Below, piece after piece: positions 4,395 through 20,660 of a DNA stretch of 64,000 nt (positions are counted from its first letter, which is position 1; each line of letters opens with the position of its first letter). Position numbers and translations under genes: made by a program. The DNA is taken from IMG/VR virus record IMGVR_UViG_3300021963_005690, positions 19,584-83,583 of that record; one strand, written 5' to 3'. Under the pieces are notes generated by a model. It worked only from the letters and a program-made list of their open reading frames with translations. It searched no databases and was not told the origin of the DNA. Source of the stretch: a virus.

Positions 4395-5611
4395 TGAGAG
4401 CAATACACTTTTTAGCAGAAGCTGATATCAGCACTAATATAATGAAAGATCCTAAGCTAGCAAAAATGTTAGCTATAGCTGTCAGACATGATAGAACATT
4501 CCCAAAAAATGAAATAGCAGATATGGGTCCAAGACCTACTGTTGCTGATTATGTTCAAGCTTGGAGTAAATTAGTTAATCAAACACTAGCTAAGAATGAC
4601 TACGGTGATCTAAGTAAAGAAGGTAAGTTTGATAATTGGTTATTAAAACTATATAATAATCACGCAATAGATTATGAAGATTTGAATGGTGAAGGTGGTG
4701 ACGCATTGGGTGCATGGCAAGCATTAAGCACACGTGGTTTATTAAAGAAGCCAGACCAAGACTTTAATAAGTTTTCTAGTATACGGTCATTACAACAGGC
4801 AATGGAAAAAGACGAGTATCGTAATACTCTAAGAAGAATCAAAGATGCTGAAGCATTAGAAAAACATAAACGCACTAGAAAAGAAATAGTACTATTAGAT
4901 AATGACAGATTTCATGTTATAATGCCATTAAACTATGGTGCTTGTTATACATTTAATAATCAAACAGGACACATGAGTAATTTCTGTACCGGTGGTTCTA
5001 GTGGATTGAATTGGTTTAATAATTATGCTCCTGATGGTCCTATCATTAGTATAATTGATAAACAAAATGTTGATAATAAGAACGGTAAGTGGCAACTACA
5101 TGCGCCTACTAGTCAACTTGTAAATAGTACGCAGGATCAAAGATATAACAGAACTGGAGCCGATCTTGAGTTTTCTAAAAGATTCCCTGGTTTAATGAAA
5201 GAAATTGTTAGAGCTATGCTTACAAAAGCAGGTGAAGTAAAAACCGGCAGTAAAGAAATTAGTCCACCTGATGGATATGATGTTAGAGAAGCGGCTAAAC
5301 AAATAGTAGCAAAATTTCCTCAAAGTTATAAATCAGTACCAGGTGCGCCGGGCAAAGAAGAAGTGCCTGATAATGTTTTTGTAAATCAACCAGCAGAACC
5401 GGAACCAACTCAGGCAACGCAACCTACTGAGCCTGAAGGTCCACGTATAAGTGATTGGAGAATCTATAATGCAGGAAGACAGGTTGCTACAGCAGTAAAT
5501 AAAACACAACAGCAAGCTATGCAAGAACTAGAAAAATATGCTGTAAAGAATAGAATACCTAGAGGTCGTATGTATATGAGTGATTATTCTAACAATCAAA
5601 TAGTCAGATGA
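4394..5611 (+). CDS. hypothetical protein, possible virion-internal protein
   Basis: 405-aa ORF, translationally coupled (TAATG); MRAIHFLAE N-terminus; FCTGG...WFNNY...GP...KWQLH core. Confidence 0.75.
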   Translation: MRAIHFLAEADISTNIMKDPKLAKMLAIAVRHDRTFPKNEIADMGPRPTVADYVQAWSKLVNQTLAKNDYGDLSKEGKFDNWLLKLYNNHAIDYEDLNGEGGDALGAWQALSTRGLLKKPDQDFNKFSSIRSLQQAMEKDEYRNTLRRIKDAEALEKHKRTRKEIVLLDNDRFHVIMPLNYGACYTFNNQTGHMSNFCTGGSSGLNWFNNYAPDGPIISIIDKQNVDNKNGKWQLHAPTSQLVNSTQDQRYNRTGADLEFSKRFPGLMKEIVRAMLTKAGEVKTGSKEISPPDGYDVREAAKQIVAKFPQSYKSVPGAPGKEEVPDNVFVNQPAEPEPTQATQPTEPEGPRISDWRIYNAGRQVATAVNKTQQQAMQELEKYAVKNRIPRGRMYMSDYSNNQIVR

Positions 5612-5616
5612 TAGCC

Positions 5617-5646
5617 AAAAAAATAGACCCCGAAGGGTCTATTTTA
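5617..5646. terminator. bidirectional intrinsic terminator between convergent genes
   Basis: AAAAAAATAGACCC-CGAA-GGGTCTATTTT. Confidence 0.8.
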
Positions 5647-6246
5647 CATTGCAGGTCCATTCCCGTTCTTGAATCCTACACTACCACCTTCTGCTTCAAT
5701 ACGTTTGATAACATCCTCAAACAGTATAGGTCTATAGTCTGTATGCTCAACACAAACACAATGATAACGAACATCAATATAATGTCTAGTACCACGTTGG
5801 TGAAACTCATGTAATGTTTCAACATGTTTCATTACACGATTAGCATGTAAGTGACCGTGAATGTTAGTGCCAAATCGACCCAATGATTCAGTATGAATTG
5901 GTATATGACTTAATATCATACCGTTCATAACATGATACGCACGTAGTTCACGGAAGTACTGTCTATATTCATCATCACGGAAGATATCGTGGTTACCACG
6001 AATCAATACTTTATCACCGTTTAAACGACCCATAATCTTTAATGCTTTTCTATTGATAACAACATCACCACAATGATATACTTTATCATTAGGTCGTACT
6101 GTTTCATTCCAACGCTTAACCATTTCTTCATCCATTTCATCTGGGTCAGTCCATGGTCGAAGTTTTGTAACACCGTCGTTACGTGTAAAATGACATACTC
6201 CGGCATGCCCGAAGTGTGTATCCGATACTAAAAATACTGCGGGCAT
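5644..6246 (-). CDS. calcineurin-like metallophosphoesterase
   Basis: SDTHFGH, GDV, GNHD, SHIP, HGHLH motifs. Confidence 0.9.
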   Translation of the reverse strand: MPAVFLVSDTHFGHAGVCHFTRNDGVTKLRPWTDPDEMDEEMVKRWNETVRPNDKVYHCGDVVINRKALKIMGRLNGDKVLIRGNHDIFRDDEYRQYFRELRAYHVMNGMILSHIPIHTESLGRFGTNIHGHLHANRVMKHVETLHEFHQRGTRHYIDVRYHCVCVEHTDYRPILFEDVIKRIEAEGGSVGFKNGNGPAM

Positions 6247-6260
6247 ATAATTCCTTTATT

Positions 6261-6337
6261 TGGCATCCCCGGACCGAATTGAACGGCCAACCTTTGAGTT
6301 TGGAGCTCACTGCTCTGCCTAATTGAGCTACGGAGAC
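6261..6337 (-). tRNA. tRNA-Trp(CCA)
   Basis: cloverleaf, loop CTCCAAA, G73, encoded CCA. Confidence 0.9.
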
Positions 6338-6340
6338 ATA

Positions 6341-6955
6341 TTACTTTTGTTTTCTAGGCATACCACCTTTTTTCCAGCCTAGATTTTCATATTCTAAGAG
6401 TTCGTTTTTATCTATGCGTTTGGCACAATTACCGTTATTAACCAGTATTTTACCTAAATTTGCTTCAGCTACTTTAGTATTATGTGCATCAGACCTAGAC
6501 ATTTTAGCGATTGTCTGCATATGAAGGCGATGTGCTTCAGGATCCTTTTTAGACCAATTATTATCAGAAAGTTTTTTCCTAGTTTTGTCAGTAATTTTTT
6601 GTTTCAATGATGCCTGTCTTTGTTTTTCTTTAGTGGCATCGGTGTGCTTTAATCCAGTAAAGGCTCCCACGATACCTGGATTTCCACCACTGCCTCCTAT
6701 TTTTAAATTATATGATAGAGGATCATTTATTAAATTTTCAGTAACAATTTGTCTTTCTAAATCAAACATTTCAATCTTTGAATTTGCAAAATGCAATATT
6801 TCCACTTTAAAATTCTCATGCCCATATTTTTTTATGGCATGTTTTAAATGTTTGCCGGATCCTAAATAACCATCATTAATATTTGCAGTTTGATGACAAC
6901 CCACATAATATTTATTATTGATTAAATTTGTAGTTCTATATATTATATAATGCAT
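6341..6955 (-). CDS. GIY-YIG homing endonuclease with NUMOD3-like repeats (Seg-like)
   Basis: IIYRTTNLINNKYYVGCH, YLGSG, YNLKIGG, HTDATKEK. Confidence 0.9.
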   Translation of the reverse strand: MHYIIYRTTNLINNKYYVGCHQTANINDGYLGSGKHLKHAIKKYGHENFKVEILHFANSKIEMFDLERQIVTENLINDPLSYNLKIGGSGGNPGIVGAFTGLKHTDATKEKQRQASLKQKITDKTRKKLSDNNWSKKDPEAHRLHMQTIAKMSRSDAHNTKVAEANLGKILVNNGNCAKRIDKNELLEYENLGWKKGGMPRKQK

Positions 6956-6980
6956 AATCTATTTATGCATTTAACAAAAA

Positions 6981-7010
6981 ACCGGTATGCTGCCATTACA
7001 CTAGGGAGAT
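6981..7010 (-). pseudogene. 5' half of a tRNA gene, probably Trp, truncated before the anticodon loop
   Basis: ATCTCCC-TA-GTGT-AATGGCA-GCAT-A-CCGGT then a T run; acceptor strand complementary to the GGGGAT end of the downstream tRNA-Trp. Confidence 0.65.
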
Positions 7011-7015
7011 TTTGT

Positions 7016-7237
7016 TTATAAATTTTTTCTAATACGTTTGAGATATTCTCGTCCAACAAGTCCTTGCTCAATTTCTTCTAATGCAGTTACCATTGGTCCT
7101 GATTTAGTATTGAGGGTAGAACGATGACCACGCTTTAATTCTCTTACTCTTTGTGATGCTATAAGAACTAAATCAAAACGATTACCAACCATGTTTGCGG
7201 CTTCTTCACTTGTATATCTTGCTCTGCTTTGTGACAT
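7016..7237 (-). CDS. rpoZ: RNA polymerase omega subunit homologue
   Basis: AR.T.E.A...VGNRFDLVLIASQRVREL..G ... P.VTALEEI..G. Confidence 0.85.
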   Translation of the reverse strand: MSQSRARYTSEEAANMVGNRFDLVLIASQRVRELKRGHRSTLNTKSGPMVTALEEIEQGLVGREYLKRIRKNL

Positions 7238-7246
7238 ATTTTTCCT

Positions 7247-7387
7247 TTATCTTGTTACTTTTCTAATTAATTTATACCAATAGTATTTGAAACCACGGAA
7301 CACTATGATATCAAAAGTAATTACAGGAGTAACTTCTTTTACAATGTGTCCGTATGCTCTATTGATTACATCTTCACTTTTGCTCAT
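7247..7387 (-). CDS. small hypothetical protein
   Basis: 46 aa, AAGGAG RBS. Confidence 0.65.
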   Translation of the reverse strand: MSKSEDVINRAYGHIVKEVTPVITFDIIVFRGFKYYWYKLIRKVTR

Positions 7388-7402
7388 ACTTACTCCTTTA
7401 TT

Positions 7403-7478
7403 TGGTGGGTCGTGACAGGCTCGAACTGCCGACATTCTGCGTGTAAGGCAGACACTCTACCAACTGAGTTAACGACCC
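7403..7478 (-). tRNA. tRNA-Val(TAC)
   Basis: TCTGC-CTTACAC-GCAGA; CCA end. Confidence 0.95.
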
Positions 7479-7483
7479 GATTT

Positions 7484-7663
7484 TTAACCACCTTGGTTAC
7501 TATCTTTAACTTCTGATTGACTAGCAATTTTTTCAAATGCTTCATCTTCATTCTTTTGATCCTCAATTATTCTTGGATCAGGCTTACGAAAGATATTATC
7601 CCAGTTGTTATTAAACGTTTTTAAATCAACACTATAGGGTCTTGGTAAGCTACCTTTACTCAT
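7484..7663 (-). CDS. small hypothetical protein (MSKGSLPRPYSVD...NWDNIF)
   Basis: 59-aa ORF read manually; ATGA-coupled to the upstream ORF. Confidence 0.65.
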   Translation of the reverse strand: MSKGSLPRPYSVDLKTFNNNWDNIFRKPDPRIIEDQKNEDEAFEKIASQSEVKDSNQGG

Positions 7664-7827
7664 TTACTATTATCCTTACGAGAACTTGTACGTGAATTGC
7701 TTTTTTCAATCTCAACATAACTACGAATAAAATCCCCACGTACATGTGCATCACGAATTAGTGTTGCCGCACGTTTAACTGCTTTAGGGATTTTAACTGC
7801 CCTTGAATCATAACCTCTACATGTCAT
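7660..7827 (-). CDS. small basic hypothetical protein (MTCRGYDSRAVKIPK...)
   Basis: 55-aa ORF with AAGGAAA RBS. Confidence 0.6.
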   Translation of the reverse strand: MTCRGYDSRAVKIPKAVKRAATLIRDAHVRGDFIRSYVEIEKSNSRTSSRKDNSK

Positions 7828-7850
7828 ACTATTTCCTTTTTAAAAATTAT

Positions 7851-7927
7851 TGGTCGGAATACAAGGATTCGAACCTTGGACCTCTTGCTCCCAAAGCAAG
7901 CGCACTACCAGGCTGTGCTACACTCCG
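7851..7927 (-). tRNA. tRNA-Pro(TGG)
   Basis: CTTGC-TTTGGGA-GCAAG; CCA end. Confidence 0.95.
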
Positions 7928-7929
7928 AA

Positions 7930-8079
7930 TTAACTTGGTATTATATGCGGTATATATGGAACATTACGTGGACCATGTCGTTGTTCAAGTAGTTTTTTAG
8001 CTTCTTGCACATTTGGTGCGTACACTTTGTCCTTCTTATCACCTTCCGGTGTTCTTACTGTTGCTTCATACATTGGCAT
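7930..8079 (-). CDS. small hypothetical protein (MPMYEATVRTPEG...)
   Basis: 49-aa ORF, AGGAG RBS. Confidence 0.65.
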   Translation of the reverse strand: MPMYEATVRTPEGDKKDKVYAPNVQEAKKLLEQRHGPRNVPYIPHIIPS

Positions 8080-8093
8080 ATAATTCTCCTATT

Positions 8094-8168
8094 TGGATGC
8101 GGGGGACGGATTCGCACCGCCGATCTTCAGGTTATGAGCCTGATGAGTTACTACTTCTCCACCCCGCG
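8094..8168 (-). tRNA. initiator tRNA-fMet(CAT)
   Basis: CGCGGGG start, C1:A72 mismatch, loop CTCATAA. Confidence 0.85.
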
Positions 8169-8170
8169 GT

Positions 8171-8381
8171 AATTAGTGAGACTGCTACTACACCACATAG
8201 CCCAATCTCTGAGTTGTTACACTGTCCATAACATTTATTCTTTTGGAAAGGTGTTATACCTCACCTAATGCGTTCCCGCCACTCCTTCACAGAGTACAGA
8301 TGGTCAATGCACTACATACCTAGCACTTTCTTTGGTGACTGCCCCACCCACTTTATAACGTTAAAGTGTAAACGGGTTTCT
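8171..8381 (-). ncRNA. putative structured ncRNA, copy A (trailer of tRNA-Ala)
   Basis: shares ordered sequence blocks and compensated hairpins with 11818-12012. Confidence 0.65.
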
Positions 8382-8457
8382 TGGTGGAGGAGACAGGGAT
8401 CGAACCTGCGACCTACTGGTTGCAAACCAGTCGCTCTCCCAACTGAGCTACACCCCC
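8382..8457 (-). tRNA. tRNA-Ala(TGC)
   Basis: ACTGG-TTTGCAA-CCAGT; G3:U70. Confidence 0.95.
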
Positions 8458-8466
8458 TAAATATTT

Positions 8467-8551
8467 TGGTGCCCTAGGTCGGACTCGAACCGACACATAT
8501 TTCTACGCCAGAACCTAAATCTGGTGCGTCTACCAATTTCGCCACCAGGGC
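8467..8551 (-). tRNA. tRNA-Leu(TAG)
   Basis: CCAGA-TTTAGGT-TCTGG, long variable arm. Confidence 0.95.
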
Positions 8552-8614
8552 ATTTAACTATTATATTAGAAAACTATTTATCTGTCTAGTACTTTTGGGT
8601 AGCTAAATAAATTT

Positions 8615-8893
8615 ATGCTACAAAAGAAAGAACGTATACCTCTTAACCTACGCAGTAGAGTTATTGAAAGGGACGGTAAATGGTGTGTCTATTGTGATGA
8701 AGACTTGTCCGATAAAGAAATACACATGGATCATGTTATTGCTGAATCTAAAGGTGGAGAAACCACATACAACAATCTTCAAGTAACTTGTAGAAAATGT
8801 AATCTTGCTAAAGGTGTATTAACTGAATCAGAATTTGTTGACCAGTTAAGAACCAGAGCAATGAACATTTTAAATAGAATTGGAGCGGGATAG
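8615..8893 (+). CDS. small HNH endonuclease
   Basis: CVYC...DHVI..SKGG.T..NNLQVTCRKCN..KG. Confidence 0.9.
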   Translation: MLQKKERIPLNLRSRVIERDGKWCVYCDEDLSDKEIHMDHVIAESKGGETTYNNLQVTCRKCNLAKGVLTESEFVDQLRTRAMNILNRIGAG

Positions 8894-8955
8894 CGGATTC
8901 GAACCGCTGACGAACAGCTTGGAAGGCTGACACTCTACCCCTGAGTTAATCCCGC
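8881..8955 (-). tRNA. tRNA-Gly(TCC)
   Basis: CAGC-CTTCCAA-GCTG; U73. Confidence 0.95.
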
Positions 8956-8960
8956 AAATT

Positions 8961-9038
8961 TGGAGCACAGAGTGAGATTTGAACTCACGGTTTTACGGAT
9001 TTGCAATCCGTCGCATTTGACCACTCTGCCACCTGTGC
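8961..9038 (-). tRNA. tRNA-Cys(GCA)
   Basis: ACGGA-TTGCAAA-TCCGT; U73. Confidence 0.95.
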
Positions 9039-9051
9039 ATATAAATACATT

Positions 9052-9597
9052 ATGAAATATTATTCACCTATCTATTTAGAAAATATTAAAATCATTCAAG
9101 AAAAGATTTTTGATGTATTTCCTAAAACTGAATTATCAAGTAAAGAAAACTTATTCTATATACCTGATAATCTAAAATTATTTTTTGATATACCAGAATT
9201 AAAATCTGAATTAGATAATATGAACTGGTCACAATATGTTCATTCGTTTGGTTTTTATGTAATTAACAAAACATACGGCACACCTATACATATTGATAGT
9301 GGTAATAGTCTTTATAGTTTTAATATACCAATACTAAATTGTAAAAATACTTTTGTTAATTTTTACAAAACAGATAAAGAACCTGTAAAGAAATCATATG
9401 TTACATATAACAAGATTATAGACTATTATAGTTTTAATCCTACCGAATGTGTATTACAAGATAAATTAGAAATGACCACTCCACATGTCATAAAAGTCAA
9501 AGAGGTACATAATGTAACTAACATTAACGATTTACCACGCATTACATTATTAATCAGATTAAAAAAAGAAATTAACTTGGATTACTTATTTCAATGA
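9052..9597 (+). CDS. hypothetical protein, probable cupin / 2OG-Fe(II)-like fold
   Basis: PIHID...H.V.N....R pattern; TATAAATA directly upstream. Confidence 0.6.
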   Translation: MKYYSPIYLENIKIIQEKIFDVFPKTELSSKENLFYIPDNLKLFFDIPELKSELDNMNWSQYVHSFGFYVINKTYGTPIHIDSGNSLYSFNIPILNCKNTFVNFYKTDKEPVKKSYVTYNKIIDYYSFNPTECVLQDKLEMTTPHVIKVKEVHNVTNINDLPRITLLIRLKKEINLDYLFQ

Positions 9598-10031
9598 AAT
9601 ATATAGAATACTTAGATTTACCACCAGTACCCGAAAACTTAATTGAATCAATTACGGATATCATTAATAAGCCACCTAAAGCTTATAGTACAGTACCGGC
9701 TGAATATAACTTTTTCAAAACTAGAAATGTTAATGATGATTTAGCAGAATGGTTACAATCTATAGTTGAATACAAAATATATCCACAATATCAATTAATA
9801 TATAACGGTTTACCTATACATATAGATAACGGTAACAGAATTAATGCCTATAACTATTTGTTAGATACAGGAGGAAAAAATGTTAAAACGGTTGTGTATA
9901 ATGAAAACTACAAACCATTACAAATTGAACAGCTTGAGCTAAAAAGATGGCACCGTATTAATACGGGCATGTTACACGGTGTTCATGGAATTGAACCTGA
10001 TAAAGTTAGAGTTGCTATTAGCATAACATAA
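9594..10031 (+). CDS. hypothetical protein, probable cupin / 2OG-Fe(II)-like fold
   Basis: PIHID...NYLLDTGG...HGV....RVAISI. Confidence 0.6.
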   Translation: MKYIEYLDLPPVPENLIESITDIINKPPKAYSTVPAEYNFFKTRNVNDDLAEWLQSIVEYKIYPQYQLIYNGLPIHIDNGNRINAYNYLLDTGGKNVKTVVYNENYKPLQIEQLELKRWHRINTGMLHGVHGIEPDKVRVAISIT

Positions 10032-10050
10032 TCATTTATTTGTGCATAAA

Positions 10051-10135
10051 GCATATTGAAACACACTAACTACCTTGGTATGTACTAAAGTTCAATGAAC
10101 CGCTACGACCCAATCTTTAATGTATTTCAATATGC
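10051..10135 (-). ncRNA. long-stem RNA element 1
   Basis: 19-bp closing stem GCATATTGAAATACATTAA/TTAGTGTGTTTCAATATGC with G:U pairs only on the minus strand. Confidence 0.6.
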
Positions 10136-10332
10136 TCTGCATCCCCCGGCGGTAATTATAGTACAGAAAGATATGACGCTATCATACCCCTCACTCGTAC
10201 CTTCCACCCGCTTCCCGACAGGGACCGTTCTCGCATTGCTAGCGGCCTTTGGGTTTAAAGACTACCACCCGTAGTTGTCACACTACTTCTCATCGTGCGG
10301 GTCACACTATCCGAAGACACTCGGAACGTTCT
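10136..10332 (-). ncRNA. putative ~195-nt GC-enriched structured RNA
   Basis: hairpins TCCGAG-TGTC-TTCGGA, GTAGT-GTGACA-ACTAC, GGGT...ACCC; GC-rich relative to flanks. Confidence 0.5.
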
Positions 10333-10346
10333 TTTATAAATACAGT

Positions 10347-10529
10347 ATGGAACTACAAAACTGTATTGATGTTGTTGAAAAGTTGTTGCGTCAAAACAAC
10401 CGTAAATATAAAGATAGCCACGAACAATTATTATATGAACGAGGCTACCTTACTGGTTTACTAGCTAGGATGATGAGTGATGACCCTCACATTTTACATC
10501 AAGTCATAAACAAAGCAAACCATCGCTAA
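10347..10529 (+). CDS. small hypothetical protein (MELQNCIDVV...)
   Basis: 60 aa after TATAAATA. Confidence 0.65.
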   Translation: MELQNCIDVVEKLLRQNNRKYKDSHEQLLYERGYLTGLLARMMSDDPHILHQVINKANHR

Positions 10530-10530
10530 T

Positions 10531-10622
10531 TGGTGGAGACGGTGAGATTCGAACTCACGGTACATATTACTACATACGACAGGTTAGCAACCTGCTGCCT
10601 TAGGCCACTCGGCCACGTCTCC
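10531..10622 (-). tRNA. tRNA-Ser(GCT)
   Basis: CAGG-TTGCTAA-CCTG, long variable arm. Confidence 0.95.
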
Positions 10623-10628
10623 TATGTT

Positions 10629-10706
10629 TGGTGCCTCCACCTGGACTCGAACCAGGAACCTAGCGATTATGAGTCGCTTGCAACTAACCAATTGTGCTAT
10701 AGAGGC
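10629..10706 (-). tRNA. tRNA(CAT), probably Ile2 (lysidine type)
   Basis: AGCGA-CTCATAA-TCGCT, Ile2-like anticodon arm. Confidence 0.8.
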
Positions 10707-10711
10707 AATAA

Positions 10712-11326
10712 TCAAATACTCAACTCAAATTTATTTCGTTGAATATTTATTATATCTTGTTTTTGAACTACTAACAACTGTTCTGGGAATTGTACCCACT
10801 TTGCGGTGTCTCGTTCAGTCTTATATCCTTTGACTTCTACATACACTTTTTTTTCAGGCAAATAGAAATCAGGGAAATATGTTCTGGAGCCATTCCATTC
10901 ATACGGAAATCCTTTTGTATTCCTAATACAAGGAATATTATTAGCGAGACACCATTTATAAAAATTAAGTTCCCAATTTCCTTGAAATTTAATTCCATTA
11001 AAAATAATTTGCTTTACTCTTCCCCTATTAGAAGATGAGTATGCTTCTGGATTATTTTCAACTGCTTGTTTCATACTTGATGACAGTTTATTTTTAGATT
11101 CGTCAGACCAAACTCTATTACGATTTGAATTACGAATAATATCTCTGCCTGTTTCCGTCATAGGAGTAGCAGTGCCTTTAATAAACTGATTACTACCTTG
11201 TTTCCCTAACATCCCCATTGATGCTTTTTTAACTTTAGCATCAGGATTAGATTTACAATACAGTTCGTGTTGAGCCTTACTGTTGGGTGATTTTTCATCA
11301 CGGTTACAAAAATTACATTTTAACAT
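10712..11326 (-). CDS. putative homing endonuclease, PD-(D/E)xK type with NUMOD3-like segment
   Basis: N-terminal CxxC..HxxxC, WSDESKNKLS, YFPDFYLP...VEVKGY. Confidence 0.8.
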   Translation of the reverse strand: MLKCNFCNRDEKSPNSKAQHELYCKSNPDAKVKKASMGMLGKQGSNQFIKGTATPMTETGRDIIRNSNRNRVWSDESKNKLSSSMKQAVENNPEAYSSSNRGRVKQIIFNGIKFQGNWELNFYKWCLANNIPCIRNTKGFPYEWNGSRTYFPDFYLPEKKVYVEVKGYKTERDTAKWVQFPEQLLVVQKQDIINIQRNKFELSI

Positions 11327-11369
11327 AAATGTATTTAGTCCTAAAGTTCATTGCTCTAACCTTCTATTT

Positions 11370-11454
11370 TGGTGCGAGTGCCCGGAATCGAACCGGGATG
11401 CCGTTAAGCGAGAGATTTTAAGTCTCTTGTGTCTACCTATTTCACCACACTCGC
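11370..11454 (-). tRNA. tRNA-Leu(TAA)
   Basis: AGAGA-CTTAAAA-TCTCT. Confidence 0.95.
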
Positions 11455-11466
11455 ATTATTGTTATC

Positions 11467-11495
11467 ATTATATATCATACAATGATTGTAGTCAA
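11467..11495 (-). promoter_or_regulatory. internal sigma70-type promoter of the tRNA array
   Basis: TTGACT-17 nt-TATAAT. Confidence 0.7.
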
Positions 11496-11514
11496 ATAAT
11501 TTGGTCAACTAACT

Positions 11515-11589
11515 TGGCGGTCCCAGCGGGTAACGATCCCGCTCCTCATGCGTGACAGGCATGTATGCGTCCATGAACACTTTGAGACC
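11515..11589 (-). tRNA. tRNA-Asp(GTC)
   Basis: CATGC-CTGTCAC-GCATG; G73; atypical T-loop ATCGTTA. Confidence 0.88.
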
Positions 11590-11662
11590 TAACACTGAAT
11601 AGGACACCCCTTTGGCCTAGGTCGTTTAAGAGTACGCCTGCCCAGCGACTCTCCTATATTCT

Positions 11663-11747
11663 TGGTGGAGATTACTGGGATCGAACCAGTCGTGCTATAA
11701 AGCGGCGGATTTACAATCCACTGCATCACCATTGATGCTTCATCTCC
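11663..11747 (-). tRNA. tRNA-Tyr(GTA)
   Basis: GTGGA-TTGTAAA-TCCGC, long variable arm. Confidence 0.93.
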
Positions 11748-11817
11748 AAGATGAGTTACGGTTGCAAGACCTAGTGTCTCATTACTGAGAGAAGTGTCAG
11801 GGCGATGTAACTCAAAA

Positions 11818-12012
11818 AATTAGTATAAGCTACTGGGTTCCACGCCAGCCCTTAATTGAGCGGTTACTCTGTCCATCTCTTTTATTCTAACGTCTGTGTG
11901 CAGAGAGATACTGCCTATCAGATTCAGAGGATTTCCCTCGCTAACGGTCTTCTGCCACCGGAACTCTATCGCTATTCAAACGCTATTTTAACGAAAATAG
12001 TAACGGGATTCT
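11818..12012 (-). ncRNA. putative structured ncRNA, copy B (trailer of tRNA-Glu)
   Basis: paralogue of 8171-8381. Confidence 0.65.
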
Positions 12013-12013
12013 T

Positions 12014-12088
12014 TGGAAGAGCATAGGAGAATCGAACTCCTCTTCTTAGGATGAAAACCTAATGTCCTAACCGATAGACGAATGCTCC
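12014..12088 (-). tRNA. tRNA-Glu(TTC)
   Basis: TTAGG-TTTTCAT-CCTAA. Confidence 0.92.
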
Positions 12089-12090
12089 AT

Positions 12091-12216
12091 GTTATTAGTT
12101 TTGCTGACGCACTATTTGCTATGCTCAACGGAATTGCCAGCTGGACGTACCGTTTATATACATAGTTAGTTAGAGTTGACGTTTACTCAGGCGCTTACAT
12201 CAGCAAAACTAATAAC
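12091..12216. repeat. 17-bp perfect inverted repeat enclosing about 90 nt
   Basis: GTTATTAGTTTTGCTGA ... TCAGCAAAACTAATAAC. Confidence 0.8.
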
Positions 12217-12219
12217 ACA

Positions 12220-12425
12220 CTATATGAAAACACACTATGGGAACTACACTTCTAATATAAGACCGTCTCTTATATTTTTAGTTTTGTCATTACTTCCTAC
12301 ATACTCCGTCGCTTCTCCAGAGCCTAAGCCCCTATTTCATGTACTTAGCTTGAGCGTGGGCGGCCCCACAGTCCTCGCCTTAAGTACCTAACGGTGTAGG
12401 TAACCCTTAATATGTTTACATATAG
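12220..12425 (-). ncRNA. long-stem multibranch RNA element 2
   Basis: closing stem CTATATGTAAACATATTA/TAGTGTGTTTTCATATAG; inner CTACAC/GTGTAG, GTACTTA/TAAGTAC, GTGGG/CCCAC, AATATAAGA/TCTTATATT. Confidence 0.6.
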
Positions 12426-12462
12426 TCCCTGTAACTTAAACAGGGCTATATGATAACTTAAC

Positions 12463-12475
12463 TTTTTAAAGAACT
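12463..12475 (-). promoter_or_regulatory. boxA-like antitermination element
   Basis: AGTTCTTTAAAAA versus rrn boxA TGCTCTTTAACA, just downstream of tandem promoters. Confidence 0.55.
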
Positions 12476-12512
12476 CTTTGCAACTGACTCTATCGTTTGT
12501 TGCTATGTGTCT

Positions 12513-12541
12513 ATTATAACACCGTTTTGATTAATTGTCAA
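12513..12541 (-). promoter_or_regulatory. sigma70 promoter (P2 of tandem pair)
   Basis: TTGACA-17 nt-TATAAT with extended TG. Confidence 0.9.
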
Positions 12542-12594
12542 ATTCTTTTTTGTGTCTCTGTTTCCAAGAACTTCTTCAATCAATCTATACATAG

Positions 12595-12623
12595 AGTATA
12601 GCACTATTTGGATTTATTGTCAA
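12595..12623 (-). promoter_or_regulatory. sigma70 promoter (P1 of tandem pair)
   Basis: TTGACA-17 nt-TATACT with extended TG. Confidence 0.85.
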
Positions 12624-12652
12624 ACTATTAGTTGTTGTAAATAAACAACATT

Positions 12653-12727
12653 TGGTCCGGGGTACAGGAATCGAACCTGTATTGACTGCTTAGAAGGCAG
12701 CTGTATTATCCATTATACTAACCCCAG
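12653..12727 (-). tRNA. tRNA-Arg(TCT)
   Basis: CTGC-CTTCTAA-GCAG. Confidence 0.93.
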
Positions 12728-12796
12728 ATAAATTTTCAACTTGTCTCTATTGAAGTAGAATTTTGATTTATTGTCAACCTATTACTAAATATCTCT

Positions 12797-13426
12797 ATGA
12801 TATCATTGTTAAACTTACCCAAACCATCTAATGCGGTGTTAGATATGGTCACTCATAACATCAATACATTACAAATAAACAACTCCTCAAAAAAATATTT
12901 TGATGGTTCTCAACACAATAAAATGAACTGTATTGCAGGTCAAACCTTTGTATGCGATATTCCTATATATTTACAACTTTTTAAAGAGTTTAAATTTTAT
13001 ATTACTGATAGATTTCAAGCTAGTATTGGCATATTTAAAAATGTTGATACTAGTAAACTATCGTACTTGCCACCGCATATTGATAATGTACGAACACTAA
13101 GTTTAAATTATGTTATTAGTGAAGGAGGAAAAAATGTATTGACTACTATGTACAAAACTACTGCACAAAACGTAACTAAAAGTGCTATTCAAATGGAACT
13201 ATATGACAATTTAGAAATAGATGTTGCAGTAAAAACAGTTGCTAATAACTGGTATGCAATAGATATTCAAAACTATCATAGTGTTGACCATATTGAAAAT
13301 CAACGTGTTATTCTAACGTTAAGTTTTAATCATATAAACTATGATTATTTTACAAGCAAATATGAACATTTGCTTGTAAAAGATTGGCTCCCCAGGATGG
13401 GATCGAACCACCGACACCCTGATTAA
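12797..13426 (+). CDS. hypothetical protein, cupin / 2OG-Fe(II)-like; C-terminus runs antisense into tRNA-Asn
   Basis: PPHID...LNYVISEGG.NV.T...HSV....R; same family as 9594-10031. Confidence 0.65.
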   Translation: MISLLNLPKPSNAVLDMVTHNINTLQINNSSKKYFDGSQHNKMNCIAGQTFVCDIPIYLQLFKEFKFYITDRFQASIGIFKNVDTSKLSYLPPHIDNVRTLSLNYVISEGGKNVLTTMYKTTAQNVTKSAIQMELYDNLEIDVAVKTVANNWYAIDIQNYHSVDHIENQRVILTLSFNHINYDYFTSKYEHLLVKDWLPRMGSNHRHPD

Positions 13427-13460
13427 CAGTCAGGTGCAACTGCCGCTGTGCTACTGGGGA
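13385..13460 (-). tRNA. tRNA-Asn(GTT)
   Basis: CCTGA-CTGTTAA-TCAGG. Confidence 0.95.
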
Positions 13461-13554
13461 ATAAATTTGGGGCAGGGTTCAAACCTACCGCGTTACATAC
13501 CGTTATCGTTGTAACTCTGCACTATGTTATAGCCATTGTGTGCCTGCGTTTTCT

Positions 13555-13629
13555 TGGTGCCCCAGGTTAGAATCGAACTAACTACCTACCGCTTACAAGG
13601 CGGGTGCTCTACCAGTGAGCTACAAGGGC
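13555..13629 (-). tRNA. tRNA-Thr(TGT)
   Basis: CCGC-CTTGTAA-GCGG. Confidence 0.93.
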
Positions 13630-13654
13630 ATTGTTTATTTAATAGTATTATACA

Positions 13655-14215
13655 CTAGCTTAATAATATTCTACTATGTTTTGGAACACCTGCTAACAAA
13701 TATTCCATTTGGTCAGCAAGAATTGTTCTATGTTGTAGAATCATATTCTCGTAGTGATTAGGTACATAAGGTGTATATAGTAATTCCATACGCACTTCTT
13801 TCAAACTCTTATGTCCTTTTTTGCTGTTACAATCTTTACATGCTGTAACAACATTCATCCAAGTGTTTTCACCGCCCTTACTTCTAGGGACAATGTGGTC
13901 ACGACTTAATAGATGATAGTTAGGAAAGTGTTCGCCGCAATAAGCACATACATGTCTATCACGACCAAACAATGTTTTATTAGTTAGTGCTACACATGAG
14001 TGTTTGTATGGATTAAATCCGTGACCTTTGATAGCAATGATACTACTAGCTTCTAAGTAACTTAGTGTACCGTCATTTTGTATGCCACCACGATATCTAG
14101 CCACAATATTACCCATTGACCATGCTATGGCATCTTTTGCTTTATAGGTAATTGCGTCATCATTTGAGATCCATTGCCGGGGAACTCCCGAGATATCTAG
14201 TGCTAATACTGACAC
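13655..14215 (-). CDS. HNH endonuclease (McrA-like family)
   Basis: RD..VCAYCG...SRDHIVPRSKGG..TW.NVVTACKDCNSKKG. Confidence 0.9.
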   Translation of the reverse strand: MSVLALDISGVPRQWISNDDAITYKAKDAIAWSMGNIVARYRGGIQNDGTLSYLEASSIIAIKGHGFNPYKHSCVALTNKTLFGRDRHVCAYCGEHFPNYHLLSRDHIVPRSKGGENTWMNVVTACKDCNSKKGHKSLKEVRMELLYTPYVPNHYENMILQHRTILADQMEYLLAGVPKHSRILLS

Positions 14216-14265
14216 GACAAACTCCTTAAAAAAAAGATAAATAAGTATATCACAAAGGGTACACT

Positions 14266-14931
14266 ATGTCTATTTACACAGGTAACAATTATAGAAAAAT
14301 TTATGAGTCACACTTTGGTCCCATACCAAAAGACGACCAGGAAAGATCATATGAAATACATCACATTGATGGTAATCGCAAAAATAATGACCCTTCAAAT
14401 CTACAGTGCCTCGCTATTCAAGAGCATTATAACATACATTTTAATCAATCAGATTGGGGCGCATGTTATTTAATTGCTAGAAAAATGAAACTGTCGCCAG
14501 AAGAATTGTCAACCTTATCTAAAAAAGTTAATCAACAAAGAATACAAACAGGCGAACATCAATTCTGTGGGGATAAGAACCCGCAAAAACAAGAATATAA
14601 TCGTATTAAATCATCTAAGAAGATGAAAGCACAATATGAAACAGTTTGGAAAAATAATCCTGAAAACAAAAAAATGCGCTCAGTGTGGGGCAAAAAAGGT
14701 TCTGAATTTATGAAGTCTGCTGAAGGTAGATTACTGGCTTCTAGCAAAACACAATCAAAAAATCCAAATTACGACCATACGATTCTCACATTTGAACACA
14801 CTGAAACAAATACACAATTCACAGGAACTATGTACGACTTTAGAACAAAATTCATGTTACGACAGTCATCAGTGAGTATGGTTGTTGCCGGTAAGCGACA
14901 AACAGTTTCTGGTTGGAAACTTGTCATCTGA
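14266..14931 (+). CDS. HNH homing endonuclease
   Basis: YRKIYE.H.GPIP...EIHHIDGNRKNNDPSNL.CL...EH...H. Confidence 0.9.
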   Translation: MSIYTGNNYRKIYESHFGPIPKDDQERSYEIHHIDGNRKNNDPSNLQCLAIQEHYNIHFNQSDWGACYLIARKMKLSPEELSTLSKKVNQQRIQTGEHQFCGDKNPQKQEYNRIKSSKKMKAQYETVWKNNPENKKMRSVWGKKGSEFMKSAEGRLLASSKTQSKNPNYDHTILTFEHTETNTQFTGTMYDFRTKFMLRQSSVSMVVAGKRQTVSGWKLVI

Positions 14932-14956
14932 CTGTCTACATTTATTTAATGCCAAG

Positions 14957-15031
14957 TGGCGGGTCCTGTAGGAATTGAACCCACATCCCGAAGTTCGAAG
15001 CATCGTATTCTATCCATTGAACTAAGGACCC
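14957..15031 (-). tRNA. tRNA-Arg(TCG)
   Basis: CGATG-CTTCGAA-CTTCG with one U:U mismatch. Confidence 0.85.
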
Positions 15032-15039
15032 GATAAAGG

Positions 15040-15187
15040 TGGGAGCCTAACTATCTTATTGTTAGTAAGCCTCGTTAGATTGTCTCGTATAGGCAAGTTT
15101 ACACACCCGTCAATCATACTATAGTGTCATCACAGTTAACCCCACTGTGACTAGATTGACAGGGACTCAAACCTATCGTCTATCCCA
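15040..15187 (-). ncRNA. putative structured RNA (trailer of tRNA-Gln)
   Basis: TGGGA/TCCCA closure; CCCTGTCAATC/GATTGACGGG; TCACAGT/ACTGTGA. Confidence 0.5.
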
Positions 15188-15191
15188 TAAC

Positions 15192-15265
15192 TGGCAGAGG
15201 GTACAAGAATCGAACTTGTGATCTCGGAATCAAAATCCGATGTTATGCCATTTAACTAACCCCCA
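15192..15265 (-). tRNA. tRNA-Gln(TTG)
   Basis: TCGGA-TTTTGAT-TCCGA. Confidence 0.93.
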
Positions 15266-15285
15266 ATAATCTTGCTAAATAATTG

Positions 15286-15918
15286 ATGTTTAATATTACA
15301 AAAACCCCAATCTTAATTATTTCATCACCTAGAACAGGAAGTTCAGTGTTAGGTTCATATCTACAAACTTTGTGTGACGTGCCTTACTTTAAAGAACCTG
15401 ATTACACCGGCGGCAAAGAAATGACTGACTTTTATGATTATTTCTCTCAGTCAAAAAACTTTATTCTTAAATTCCATTATATCCATTTAAATAGATACAG
15501 AAGCGATATATCCAATTATCTTATTGAAAATTCTTATAAAATAAGAATTAGAAGAAAAAATATTGTTGAACAAATTGCAAGTTTTTACATTGCGACTGAA
15601 AGAGATTTTAAGTGGCATTTTAGAAACACCGATCAACTAAATTTAGTTGACACTCTTAACATTGATATAGCAAAAATTAAACAAAATATTTTATATATTA
15701 AATACGCAAATTATAGATTAAACTCAGCACCTATTAAGTTTGATTTAGACTTATATTACGAAGACTTACCCAAAATAAATGATGTAAATTATTATATTGT
15801 TCCTAAACCTTCTAACTATAATGAGTTGTTATCTACGATAACAGAATTGGTACCGCCACCTGGATTTGAACCAGAGACCTACGCCTTATCAAGGCGGTGC
15901 TCTACCACTGAGCTATAG
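15286..15918 (+). CDS. sulfotransferase-like P-loop protein; C-terminus antisense to tRNA-Ile
   Basis: SSPRTGSS, EP, R.N..EQIAS, YYED. Confidence 0.7.
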   Translation: MFNITKTPILIISSPRTGSSVLGSYLQTLCDVPYFKEPDYTGGKEMTDFYDYFSQSKNFILKFHYIHLNRYRSDISNYLIENSYKIRIRRKNIVEQIASFYIATERDFKWHFRNTDQLNLVDTLNIDIAKIKQNILYIKYANYRLNSAPIKFDLDLYYEDLPKINDVNYYIVPKPSNYNELLSTITELVPPPGFEPETYALSRRCSTTEL

Positions 15919-15922
15919 CGGT
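15848..15922 (-). tRNA. tRNA-Ile(GAT)
   Basis: CGCC-TTGATAA-GGCG. Confidence 0.95.
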
Positions 15923-15926
15923 GAAT

Positions 15927-16001
15927 TGGTGGATGTAAGTAGATTTGAACTACTAACCTATTCCGTATGAAGGAATTGCACTACCCTTGTGCTATACATC
16001 C
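15927..16001 (-). tRNA. elongator tRNA-Met(CAT)
   Basis: ATTCC-TTCATAC-GGAAT. Confidence 0.85.
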
Positions 16002-16002
16002 A

Positions 16003-16079
16003 TGGGGTGCTTGATGGGATTTGAACCCACGCATATCGGAATCACAATCCGAGGTCTTAACCGCTTGACGACAAGCACC
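16003..16079 (-). tRNA. tRNA-His(GTG)
   Basis: TCGGA-TTGTGAT-TCCGA; G-1:C73. Confidence 0.95.
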
Positions 16080-16085
16080 GTATAT

Positions 16086-16177
16086 TGGTAGAAACGGTGA
16101 GATTCGAACTCACGGGACCATTGCTGATCCGTCTGATTTCAAGTCAGGTGCATTAAACCGGGCTCTGCCACGTTTCC
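16086..16177 (-). tRNA. tRNA-Ser(TGA)
   Basis: CTGA-CTTGAAA-TCAG, long variable arm. Confidence 0.95.
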
Positions 16178-16185
16178 TTTTATTA

Positions 16186-16261
16186 TGGTAGGACCAGGGC
16201 GGTTCGAACGCCCGACCAACGGATTAAAAGTCCGCTGCTCTACCGACTGAGCTATGGTCCC
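16186..16261 (-). tRNA. tRNA-Lys(TTT)
   Basis: GCGGA-CTTTTAA-TCCGT. Confidence 0.95.
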
Positions 16262-16267
16262 ATATAT

Positions 16268-16344
16268 TGGTGCGACCGGAAGGACTTGAACCTCCGACTC
16301 CCTATTTCGTAGACAGGTACTCTAATCCACTGAGTTACGGTCGC
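16268..16344 (-). tRNA. tRNA-Arg(ACG), first tRNA of the array
   Basis: CCTGT-CTACGAA-ATAGG. Confidence 0.93.
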
Positions 16345-16425
16345 ATTCTAAAACACACATAGTACACTCTAGTCATCAAAGTTGCCCTCTTGGCCTTATT
16401 TTCCACTATGTATGCTTTAGAATGC
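16343..16425 (-). ncRNA. long-stem RNA element 3
   Basis: 22-bp stem GCATTCTAAAGCATACATAGTG/TACTATGTGTGTTTTAGAATGC with G:U pairs. Confidence 0.6.
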
Positions 16426-16570
16426 CGTGTATCTCTACACGACATGATAGGGTCAATACCCTACCCAGTAGTCTTACTAACATGTTGTCTCCATGCTTTC
16501 ATATATACTGTCCGCCCATTCTATACATTTTGCGCTGTATTACGGCTCTCGTTGCCTATTCACGCTGTCA

Positions 16571-16738
16571 TCAATCAGTGTAAGTCAGTTGGTTAACTTT
16601 CTTAGTAGCCTCATGATGGACTCTAGCACGTTCAAGTTTATTTTCTATCAACTGTGCTACTTGTTCCTTAGTCAAAACATGATTGCTAAACCAATCTTGT
16701 TTGTTTTCAGAAGTTTTGTATTGTATCTGTTCATCCAT
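16571..16738 (-). CDS. 55-aa protein, first gene downstream of the attenuator terminator
   Basis: MDEQIQYKTSENKQDWFSNHVLTKEQVAQLIENKLERARVHHEATKKVNQLTYTD; AGAGAGG RBS. Confidence 0.6.
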   Translation of the reverse strand: MDEQIQYKTSENKQDWFSNHVLTKEQVAQLIENKLERARVHHEATKKVNQLTYTD

Positions 16739-16748
16739 TTATTGTCAA
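16720..16748 (-). promoter_or_regulatory. possible sigma70 promoter overlapping the start of the 55-aa gene
   Basis: TTGACA-17 nt-TACAAT. Confidence 0.55.
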
Positions 16749-16760
16749 ATCCTCTCTGTA

Positions 16761-16799
16761 AAAGCAAAAACCCCTGAGACTTTTTAGTTCCCAGGGGTT
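16761..16799 (-). terminator. intrinsic terminator of the putative attenuator
   Basis: AACCCCTGGGAACT-AAAA-AGTCTCAGGGGTT followed by TTTGCTTTT. Confidence 0.9.
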
Positions 16800-16844
16800 A
16801 GATAAATGTAGTTATGATGTTAACTTGTTACCTAGTCCCCGGGC
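16790..16844 (-). promoter_or_regulatory. antiterminator hairpin, mutually exclusive with the terminator
   Basis: CCC-GGGG-AC-TAGGTAA pairs with TTATCTA-A-CCCC-T-GGG; apical AGTTA/TAACT. Confidence 0.75.
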
Positions 16845-16965
16845 CATGTTCTTGTGAATCATTATTGCCGCGAATACTTGTTGGATATGCTGGTACAAAG
16901 GATACACTGGCTAATGACAGCCACTGTCCGGTATGTTTCAACATGTTACAAGTTTTATTCATCAT
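16828..16965 (-). CDS. putative attenuator leader peptide containing all 20 amino acids
   Basis: MMNKTCNMLKHTGQWLSLASVSFVPAYPTSIRGNNDSQEHGPGTR*; stop codon lies inside the antiterminator 5' arm. Confidence 0.72.
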   Translation of the reverse strand: MMNKTCNMLKHTGQWLSLASVSFVPAYPTSIRGNNDSQEHGPGTR

Positions 16966-17041
16966 AGTCTTTTATTTAGTCCTGGTTTTAAATTAGTGTA
17001 AACAACGGATGTTTTTTACACCTTTTCTCAATTCATGCTGA

Positions 17042-17070
17042 AGTATAGCACGGTTTTGAATTAATGTCAA
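17042..17070 (-). promoter_or_regulatory. sigma70 promoter driving the leader and tRNA array
   Basis: TTGACA-17 nt-TATACT with extended TG. Confidence 0.88.
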
Positions 17071-17114
17071 ACTTTCGTTCGCCCATTTTTGCAATTATTT
17101 TTTAATACTTATTG

Positions 17115-19754: not shown

Positions 19755-20660
19755 TTAGAGCAAAGATTCTAAAAACATTAATTCTCGTAGGAACTCTTTT
19801 TGACCAAACATTGCATCAGAACTATTTAAGTAAACCTCATTAAATTTTGATTTGTGAGTTTGTATGAACTCTTTAGATATGTCAGTATAAAAATTTATTA
19901 CATGAGGTGGTGTTCCTTTTGGAACTACGATCCCTATTAATGCACCAAAATCTTTACCCAATGGATTAATTTTTGAGCTGAACTCAGGTACATTAGTTCC
20001 TGAAGCAGTAGTTGCAATTGCTACCATTTTTCCTTGTTGAATATAAGTACCAGTTGAAGCCTGTGTTGATATTGCATAGTCAATTATGCCACCTAATAAG
20101 TCTCTTGTCACATCACTATTGTTTTTGTAGGGTACAACCACTACATCATGATTTAAGGTTTTTGCAAGAGTTTTAGCTAAAATTTCTTGTGTCTCGGTTG
20201 AATATGCAATACTAATCTTCTTTCTAGGTAAAGCTATTAATTGATTGATGGTTTTAACCGAGTTATCAGACCGTGTAACTAAGAACGAAGGTACTTTACC
20301 AACTATAGTGATAAGTTCAAAATCTTTATATGAATGCTTTTTTGACATATATGCGGCCTCATCAGGGTGAACCATCATTCCTAGACCCAATGTCATTAGT
20401 AATGAATATCCATTGGGTTGTTGTTGACTTAAATGTGCTGTTGCTATTTGTCCTTTAGCCCCTTGTTTAACATCAACAAATGCAGTTATACCTTTTGATG
20501 ATAAAAATCTCTCAAACCAAGTTGCAACAAGATGTGTTGTTCCGCCCGGTCCATGGCCACTTATAACTGCAACTGTTTTGTTTTTATCTGGTATCCATTC
20601 GGCATGTGCAGAAGTAGTTATATTTAATAACACGGTTAATAATACAAGTATTTTAATCAT
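19755..20660 (-). CDS. Bug/TctC tripartite tricarboxylate transporter substrate-binding protein
   Basis: signal peptide, GPGG.T, GAKG.IA, PNGYSLL, VPYK, DLLGG.ID, PKGTP. Confidence 0.88.
   Translation of the reverse strand: MIKILVLLTVLLNITTSAHAEWIPDKNKTVAVISGHGPGGTTHLVATWFERFLSSKGITAFVDVKQGAKGQIATAHLSQQQPNGYSLLMTLGLGMMVHPDEAAYMSKKHSYKDFELITIVGKVPSFLVTRSDNSVKTINQLIALPRKKISIAYSTETQEILAKTLAKTLNHDVVVVPYKNNSDVTRDLLGGIIDYAISTQASTGTYIQQGKMVAIATTASGTNVPEFSSKINPLGKDFGALIGIVVPKGTPPHVINFYTDISKEFIQTHKSKFNEVYLNSSDAMFGQKEFLRELMFLESLL

Follow-up and report, generated by a model that had tools for sequence, protein, structure and literature searches.

We examined 64,000 nucleotides of viral DNA, positions 19,584 to 83,583 of the IMG/VR record IMGVR_UViG_3300021963_005690 (the whole stretch is called the window below). 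The record is an 83.6-kb virus fragment with a completeness rating of 24%, and its encoded proteins include a ribonucleotide reductase, RCC1-repeat proteins, TctC-family proteins, an RpoZ-like protein and several homing endonucleases. ARAGORN detected 24 tRNA genes in the window, on the minus strand between 6261 and 16344, and Rfam added a weak 25th (11666-11747). An initial annotation, made from the sequence alone, had proposed that two spacers of this array hold diverged copies of one structured non-coding RNA of about 200 nt. Copy A and copy B, as these elements are called here, belong to two paralogous classes of a single phage RNA family, so far uncatalogued, whose members measure ~190-215 nt. 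They are located as follows:

8171..8381, minus strand: copy A, a class-A member of ~211 nt (covariance model R1, 217.5 bits, E = 5.5e-60; nhmmer 185 bits)
8382..8457, minus strand: tRNA-Ala (UGC), CCA end adjoining copy A (ARAGORN; Rfam tRNA model 67.1 bits)
8094..8168, minus strand: tRNA-Met (CAU), starting 3 nt past copy A (ARAGORN, Rfam)
11818..12013, minus strand: copy B, a class-B member of ~196 nt (class-B profile, nhmmer 218 bits)
12014..12088, minus strand: tRNA-Glu (UUC), CCA end adjoining copy B (ARAGORN, Rfam)

Both copies lie at the sites proposed for them, copy A 1 nt after the CCA of tRNA-Ala and copy B 1 nt after tRNA-Glu. They share the strand of the tRNA genes and are set apart by spacers of a few nucleotides, the arrangement of passenger RNAs, and the spacer between tRNA-Ala and tRNA-Met is filled entirely by copy A. 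The sequence blocks listed by the initial annotation were recovered in both copies and in the same order: 5' ..CCCGUU(U)AC, a CGUUA-loop hairpin with different stems, AGAAUAAA....AUGGACAG.GUAAC..CUCA, and a 3' hairpin GGGC..GUGG..GUAGC whose closing stems differ. One block, 'GTGGCRG..A..C.TTAG.GAGG', falls in different structural parts of the two copies. In copy A it comprises the 3' strand of helix P_b, a junction and the 3' strand of helix P_a, in copy B the P4 hairpin and a junction, and the two versions are probably not homologous.

We searched IMG/VR with the core of the RNA as an exact pattern (AGAATAAANNNNATGGACAGNGTAAC; 26 nt, 21 fixed bases). It matched at least 118 loci, many of them on contigs of 150-347 kb. 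Among the matches listed there were 86 unique sequences, which form two classes, A (like copy A) and B (like copy B). A covariance model built from 31 class-A sequences with copy B excluded (R1) matched copy B over model positions 1-217 (56.4 bits, E = 7.9e-14). R1 gave scores of 88-234 bits for class A, and every class-B copy was matched over the full model length with 28-64 bits. Because a class-A model matches class B over its full length, the two classes are homologous, and the idea of two diverged copies of one structured RNA is borne out. The family is a large one, with big freshwater phages as its carriers. Profile searches of the fetched loci found further diverged class-A copies lacking the exact pattern. 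A class-B variant carries the core GGUCAG in place of GGACAG and lies ~85 nt upstream of a class-A copy (locus L044, 7717-7921; locus L054, 2940-3144), so the exact-pattern scan undercounts the family. The two classes occur within 15 kb of each other in 13 loci, this window included.

The family was traced to phages only. The main pattern had 0 matches in 185,579 prokaryote genomes, and a second, independent pattern had two matches in the same genomes, neither of them a real cellular locus. One (L128) is a chance match inside a gene read from its sequence as ABC-F-type, the other (L127) lies on a 3-kb phage fragment binned into a cyanobacterial metagenome-assembled genome. This fragment also encodes a tRNA with a CUA anticodon at 2361-2451, labelled Pyl by ARAGORN, a possible amber suppressor. 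When both copies were compared by blastn with 50,697 isolate phage records (INPHARED), copy A gave only tRNA matches and copy B none, and no cultured carrier was found.

The annotation had regarded conserved loops on compensated stems as the signature of a functional RNA, and covariation was indeed present in both classes. For class B, alignment A2 comprised 55 unique sequences, in which 11 helices with 44 pairs were counted. Paired cells amounted to 94.8%, compared to 88.2% in shuffled alignments and 34-44% when the partner was slid; 17 of 44 pairs changed on both sides, and covariation was 0.201 versus 0.089, a score reached by 0 of 500 shuffles. The class-A counts cover 9 helices with 42 pairs and come from alignment A6, made by fitting 38 sequences to R1. 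Here, 91.8% of cells were paired (72.1% shuffled, 33-51% slid), both sides changed in 35 of the 42 pairs and covariation reached 0.548 versus 0.185 (again 0 of 500 shuffles), with the qualification that A6 was fitted to the nested helices and favours those; pseudoknots PK1 and PK3 lie outside the model and still covary. Compensatory changes thus exceed the shuffled as well as the slid controls, as is generally expected of a conserved structured RNA.

The fold of the family, read from these alignments, is an arrangement of three pseudoknots and an invariant core that is common to both classes. PK1, at the 5' end, is an H-type pseudoknot formed between the 5' strand (CG plus 0-3 nt) and the loop of hairpin P2, of which the 5' side is paired. 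S1/S2, the second pseudoknot, is likewise H-type and contains a conserved linker of AUAGA type. PK3 is a hairpin-loop pseudoknot adjoining the core: the 5-6 nt immediately before GGACAG pair with the loop of the hairpin that comes last ahead of the core. The core itself reads GGAC(A/G)G.GUAAC..C(U/C)CAG, and no covarying partner was found for it in the class-A and class-B alignments, so that it is apparently unpaired. After it come the 3' hairpin P7, which contains an internal loop GG/UAG and ends in a loop of GUGG/GGGA type, and a short tail. The central domain differs by class. Class A has a long-range helix around a hairpin and a conserved UGACC junction, while class B has an invariant hairpin CGGU-GGCAGAAGA-ACCG followed by a variable hairpin and a two-part stem. 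The elements of the two copies, all on the minus strand, are:

8374-8371 with 8362-8359: PK1 of copy A, CGUU with AACG in the P2 loop; P2 stem 8368-8363/8354-8349 (columns of A6)
8322..8348: S1/S2 of copy A, GGUG/CACC 8348-8345/8337-8334 and GGCA/UGCU 8343-8340/8325-8322 (complementary versions)
8257-8253 with 8232-8228: PK3 of copy A, loop AUAAC with GUUAU; 4 of 5 pairs compensated
8209..8227: core of copy A, GGACAGUGUAACAACUCAG (invariant columns in alignments A3 and A6; pattern matches)
8178..8209: P7 of copy A, outer stem, GG/UAG internal loop, inner stem and loop UGUGGUG (helices 8-9 of A6)
12005-12004 with 11993-11992: PK1 of copy B, CG with CG in the P2 loop; P2 stem 12000-11994/11989-11983 (A2)
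11961..11982: S1/S2 of copy B, S1 CGUU/AGCG and S2 GAA/UUC (helices 3-4 of A2)
11909-11905 with 11879-11875: PK3 of copy B, loop AUCUC of hairpin GCAG/CUGC with GAGAU; both sides change in 3 of 5 pairs
11856..11874: core of copy B, GGACAGAGUAACCGCUCAA (pattern match, class-B alignment)
11826..11854: P7 of copy B with GG/UAG internal loop and loop CGUGGAAC; both sides change in 6 of 8 pairs

The pseudoknots are found in several complementary versions. For PK1, an automated search for the P2 hairpin picked wrong hairpins in the partner test and gave a weak signal, and column counts were used instead. In class A both sides changed in 4 of 5 pairs (A6), and the versions observed include CGUU/AACG, CGGGC/GCCCG, CGGAC/GUCCG, CGUG/CACG, CGGU/ACCG, CGUAG/CUACG, CGCAG/CUGCG and CAGAG/CUCUG. 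Class B shows CG/CG, GG/CC and UG/CG, and its column pair 21/36 in A2 holds CG in 43 sequences, GC in 11 and UG in one, with none unpaired. Class-A S2 has at least eight complementary versions (e.g. GGCC/GGCU, CCCUG/CAGGG, CCCUU/GAGGG, GGUUG/CAACU, UGCUGA/UCAGCA, UGGC/GCCA and UACAG/CUGUA); since no single column register spans the subclasses, S1/S2 of class A is supported by this listing of versions only. In class B, S2 occurs as GAU/AUC, GAC/GUC or GAA/UUC, with 97.6% of cells paired. PK3 was found in 21 distinct helix versions, 12 of them in class B, and at least five contiguous Watson-Crick pairs formed with 70% of the own partners versus 5% of foreign ones. In class-A P7, all 10 pairs were 99-100% paired and 9 of the 10 changed on both sides.

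Two pairings of the core segment GUAAC had to be discarded. The annotation had suggested a pseudoknot with the 5' GUUAC or the loop. GUAAC is invariant, and members lacking a GUUA partner, whose 5' segments or loops read CGUAA, CGUC, CGCUA or UGUAU, show no compensating change. A local GUUAU/GUAAC hairpin proposed by RNAalifold was rejected because compensation sits in the loop of the upstream hairpin and not in GUAAC: in diverged copies GUUAU becomes GUGAU, GUAGC or AAUGU.

We wondered whether the RNA might belong to a family that is already known. In the comparison with Rfam suggested by the annotation, carried out with Rfam 15, only tRNAs reached gathering score. With permissive filters at E<=10, nothing of weight overlapped copy A or copy B in window positions 5500-17500; an 18-bit permuted-tmRNA match straddles the 3' half of tRNA-Ala. 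Approximately 16 further family members from 13 loci gave only tRNAs at E<=1. This agrees with the annotation's own failure to recognize tmRNA, RNase P, 6S, SRP or the short theta ribozymes; none of the Rfam 15 models for tmRNA, RNase P, 6S, SRP and HDV-like RNAs matched. Nor was there a match to Y RNA, hatchet, glmS, group I, GOLLD, ROOL, raiA or other Rfam families. No description of the RNA was found in the literature that we searched, and it has no Rfam family. A catalogue of 10,006 candidate viral structured RNAs has been published (PMC10690425), and the family may be hidden among these unnamed candidates.

The marine phage RNA manA (RF01745) resembles the new RNA in several respects. Both measure ~190-200 nt, occur in large aquatic phages, contain several stems and can have their own sigma-70 promoter, and they share the ordered words GAAUAAA, UA(A/G)GG and a short hairpin with a GUGGUG loop. 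Nevertheless, membership in manA fails. Against a threshold of 55.2 bits, the manA model had no match at E<=10, neither in window positions 5500-17500 nor in the whole 83.6-kb record, while the positive controls P-SSM4 and P-SSM2 scored 184.1 and 181.6 bits. In the reverse direction, R1 had no match in two manA loci (L124, L125) at E<=1, and the nhmmer profiles had none at E<=0.01. The folds differ as well: manA is closed by a long-range GGGAG/CUCCC helix, whereas the ends of the new RNA do not pair with each other, its 5' end pairing with the loop of the first hairpin and its 3' end forming a free tail. In P-SSM4, the one manA locus whose surroundings we examined, the RNA follows pstS and precedes small hypothetical open reading frames (ORFs), with no tRNAs. 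manA has been described from T4-like cyanophages and marine metagenomes in potential 5' untranslated regions (UTRs) of metabolic genes (PMC2864571). Neither setting is a tRNA array. A relationship between the two RNAs, if there is one, would be very remote.

In kind, the new family, with a fold of its own, is a passenger RNA of phage tRNA regions such as T4 RNAC and RNAD, GOLLD and ROOL. RNAC and RNAD have a length of ~120-140 nt, and three pseudoknots are not known from them. Judged by their descriptions, they are like the new RNA in being non-coding and co-transcribed with phage tRNAs, and they are presumably released from the tRNA operon by tRNA processing. Both are stable small RNAs from the T4 tRNA region, and no role has been assigned to them (PMC3014915, PMC9697503). 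Elaborate, pseudoknotted and phage-encoded RNAs of unknown function are also represented by GOLLD and ROOL, often found close to phage tRNA islands (PMC12286853), but they are 500-800+ nt long and assemble into cages of 8 to 14 units, compared to ~200 nt for the new RNA, and no sequence or model match was found between them.

The start directly behind a tRNA CCA, which the annotation had put forward for both copies, is correct for the window but does not extend to the family as a rule. Of the 56 unique class-B copies, 37 have a tRNA immediately before them (Tyr 18, Glu 12) and 39 have one immediately after (Asp 27, Tyr 9); for class A the numbers are 15 and 7 of 38 unique copies, respectively. 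Copies that do not follow a tRNA are preceded by an ORF stop codon or by their own sigma-70 promoter. The distance from GUAAC to the first base of the next tRNA is 45-51 nt across the family. At locus L103, a perfect sigma-70 promoter (12/12, extended -10) lies ~16 nt upstream of the RNA. Promoter-like sites in the region of the window are no more numerous than in shuffles; one candidate heads the operon segment with copy A:

8560..8588, minus strand: candidate sigma-70 promoter TAGACA-17-TATAAT (11/12; consensus scan), ahead of tRNA-Leu, tRNA-Ala, copy A and tRNA-Met

No terminator-like site was found on the minus strand of window positions 7900-12500, which hold both copies.

The ORFs in front of class-A copies include a conserved one of 191 aa, which has no Pfam or PHROG family and was not found in the window's own 24%-complete record, and an RpoZ-like gene that ends a few bases upstream of two copies (related contigs L016 and L095). 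The only isolate homologues of the 191-aa ORF are in the Caulobacter phages CcrColossus and CcrPW. Behind the homologue, both phages have a conserved ~285-nt non-coding region, which a 12-bp helix closes (CcrColossus, L130, 3594-3880; CcrPW, L131, 3606-3900). It matches neither R1 nor Rfam and may represent a structured RNA that holds the equivalent place without being related to the family.

Metatranscriptomes were examined for the RNA. Runs labelled marine, lake, freshwater and estuary metagenome contain part of the stretch. Expression data came from assembled contigs of four metatranscriptome runs from four studies, and both copies were covered in three. Contig depth was 314, 62 and 818 for copy A and 36, 33 and 2262 for copy B. 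Depth gaps in RNA contigs by themselves prove nothing; depth was ~0 over the ORF stretches 9108-10013 and 10769-11221 as opposed to the covered copies, which argues for accumulation as RNA and against DNA carry-over. Taken together with the alignments and the gene context, these data show a conserved, expressed, non-coding and triple-pseudoknotted RNA set into the tRNA operons of phages. The highest depth of all (1637, 228 and 6799) was seen in another place, the bin 10165-10315. It falls in a GC-rich, highly paired region of ~195 nt between ORFs and tRNA-Ser (10137-10331, minus strand), which has no Rfam match at E<=10 and probably gives a further stable, structured RNA that belongs to the tRNA operon.

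What might such an RNA do? We favour, as a reasonably probable explanation, a stable trans-acting RNA that is excised from the tRNA operon by tRNA-processing enzymes. Its context shows that it is transcribed as part of the phage tRNA operon or from a sigma-70 promoter of its own at the operon head. It would then most likely be released as a discrete stable RNA by the host's tRNA-maturation enzymes. RNase P, by processing the 5' end of the tRNA that follows (tRNA-Met for copy A), would generate the 3' end; the 5' end would arise by RNase E cleavage or exonuclease trimming in the A/U-rich spacer of 2-5 nt past the upstream CCA, after which PK1 would tuck the 5' end into the fold. These steps follow established bacterial tRNA maturation. 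Finally, the RNA may act in trans, through its conserved unpaired core and its loops, on a factor of host or phage that is connected with translation or with the metabolism of tRNA.

Several observations weigh against this explanation. The complexity of the RNA, with three pseudoknots and an invariant unpaired core, suits a ribozyme or a ligand aptamer no less than a simple protein binder. By single-sequence folding energy the two copies do not surpass their shuffles (z = -0.58 and +0.87), so that the evidence for the structure is comparative. In ten class-A copies the start lies 2-8 nt behind the stop codon of the conserved 191-aa ORF, which could point to a 3'-UTR or cis role. The assembled contigs show neither the starts nor the ends nor the strand of the RNA, and one RNA-library contig bridges the junction of tRNA-Ala and copy A. 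Lastly, three complete genomes (345, 347 and 190 kb) carry only a single class-B copy, and a two-RNA system is therefore not general.

One alternative that we consider unlikely is that the family is a new class of catalytic or tRNA-handling RNA in jumbo phages whose pseudoknot-held core is the active or binding site. The P7 loop UGUGGUG is complementary to the ...CACCA-3' end of a tRNA, and tRNA 3' ends could bind to this conserved UGG-containing loop in the manner known from T-box and RNase P RNAs. If this were true, the RNA might process, protect or sequester tRNAs, for instance as a decoy against host anticodon nucleases.

Less likely still is a ribozyme that self-cleaves and so helps to cut up the tRNA operon, perhaps at the 5' edge of the RNA right behind the upstream CCA, where theta/HDV-like ribozymes cut, or that carries out another reaction on tRNAs. 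Three pseudoknots and a strictly invariant unpaired core within ~200 nt would suit such an activity, as would the position next to tRNA CCA ends in many loci. Theta ribozymes, which are small and self-cleaving, are located immediately 3' of the tRNA CCA in phage genomes. However, theta and HDV-like ribozymes are ~50-70 nt long with a nested double-pseudoknot topology, whereas the new RNA is much larger, and many of its copies follow an ORF or a promoter instead of a tRNA. No Rfam ribozyme model, HDV-like ones included, matched at E<=10. Host RNase E and RNase P suffice for spacers of this kind, and the uncut tRNA-Ala/copy A junction in the bridging contig speaks mildly against self-cleavage as well.

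We attach little weight to a cis-acting role, be it as a riboswitch-like sensor or as a 3'-UTR element that controls or stabilizes a neighbouring transcript. manA was reportedly first read in this way, and the size and complexity of the new RNA are those of large aptamers. Some copies come right after a promoter, and the ten copies behind the 191-aa ORF and the two behind the RpoZ-like gene are placed as a 3'-UTR element would be. Yet most copies have a tRNA and not an mRNA directly downstream, there is neither a terminator nor a sequestered ribosome-binding site downstream and no conserved expression platform with alternative pairing, and the 3' tail up to the next tRNA is of fixed length. 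Equally improbable is an RNA-only multimer after the manner of ROOL and GOLLD, with classes A and B as homo- or hetero-oligomers: the niche in phage tRNA islands (PMC12286853), the conserved exposed loops CGUUA, GUGG and GGCAGAAGA and the joint presence of both classes in 13 loci would fit, but the RNA reaches only a third to a quarter of the size of ROOL or GOLLD, has no Rfam match, is found in complete genomes as class B alone and shows no covarying loop-loop contact between the classes.

Complex folds of this size (~200 nt) that combine several pseudoknots with an invariant unpaired core have usually proved to be ribozymes, riboswitches or the cores of RNA-protein machines. The present one is abundant, with its carriers (at least 118 phage contigs) often from genomes of 150-350 kb, is expressed in lakes and estuaries, and is absent from the cellular genomes searched. 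Its niche is common to GOLLD, ROOL and T4 RNAC and RNAD and is unexplained, which makes the family a way into the old question why phage tRNA arrays hold non-tRNA passenger RNAs. Its two natural classes agree in their 5' and 3' domains and differ in the central one, and together with the rich covariation this makes it tractable for structure determination.

Other features of the window concern the surroundings of the two copies. Directly after copy B lies a module of ~60 nt (11752-11812, minus strand) that is closed by GAGUUAC...GUAACUC and kept in a related contig (L117). The tRNA-like gene that Rfam added with 35.4 bits (11666-11747, minus strand) was missed by ARAGORN; its long variable arm and the ..UGUAAAU.. 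of its anticodon loop make it a probable tRNA-Tyr (GUA). Homing-endonuclease-type genes (GIY-YIG, HNH and others) are scattered on both strands among the tRNAs, at 6341-6955, 8615-8890, 10715-11326, 13655-14215 and 14266-14928. At the distal end of the tRNA operon the phage encodes an RNA polymerase omega-like protein (7016-7237, minus strand; Pfam RNA_pol_Rpb6, E = 4e-12). Further away, two homologues of TctC/Bug-family periplasmic binding proteins (Pfam PF03401) are encoded at 19755-20660 and 21037-21939 on the minus strand, and these may hint at the host.

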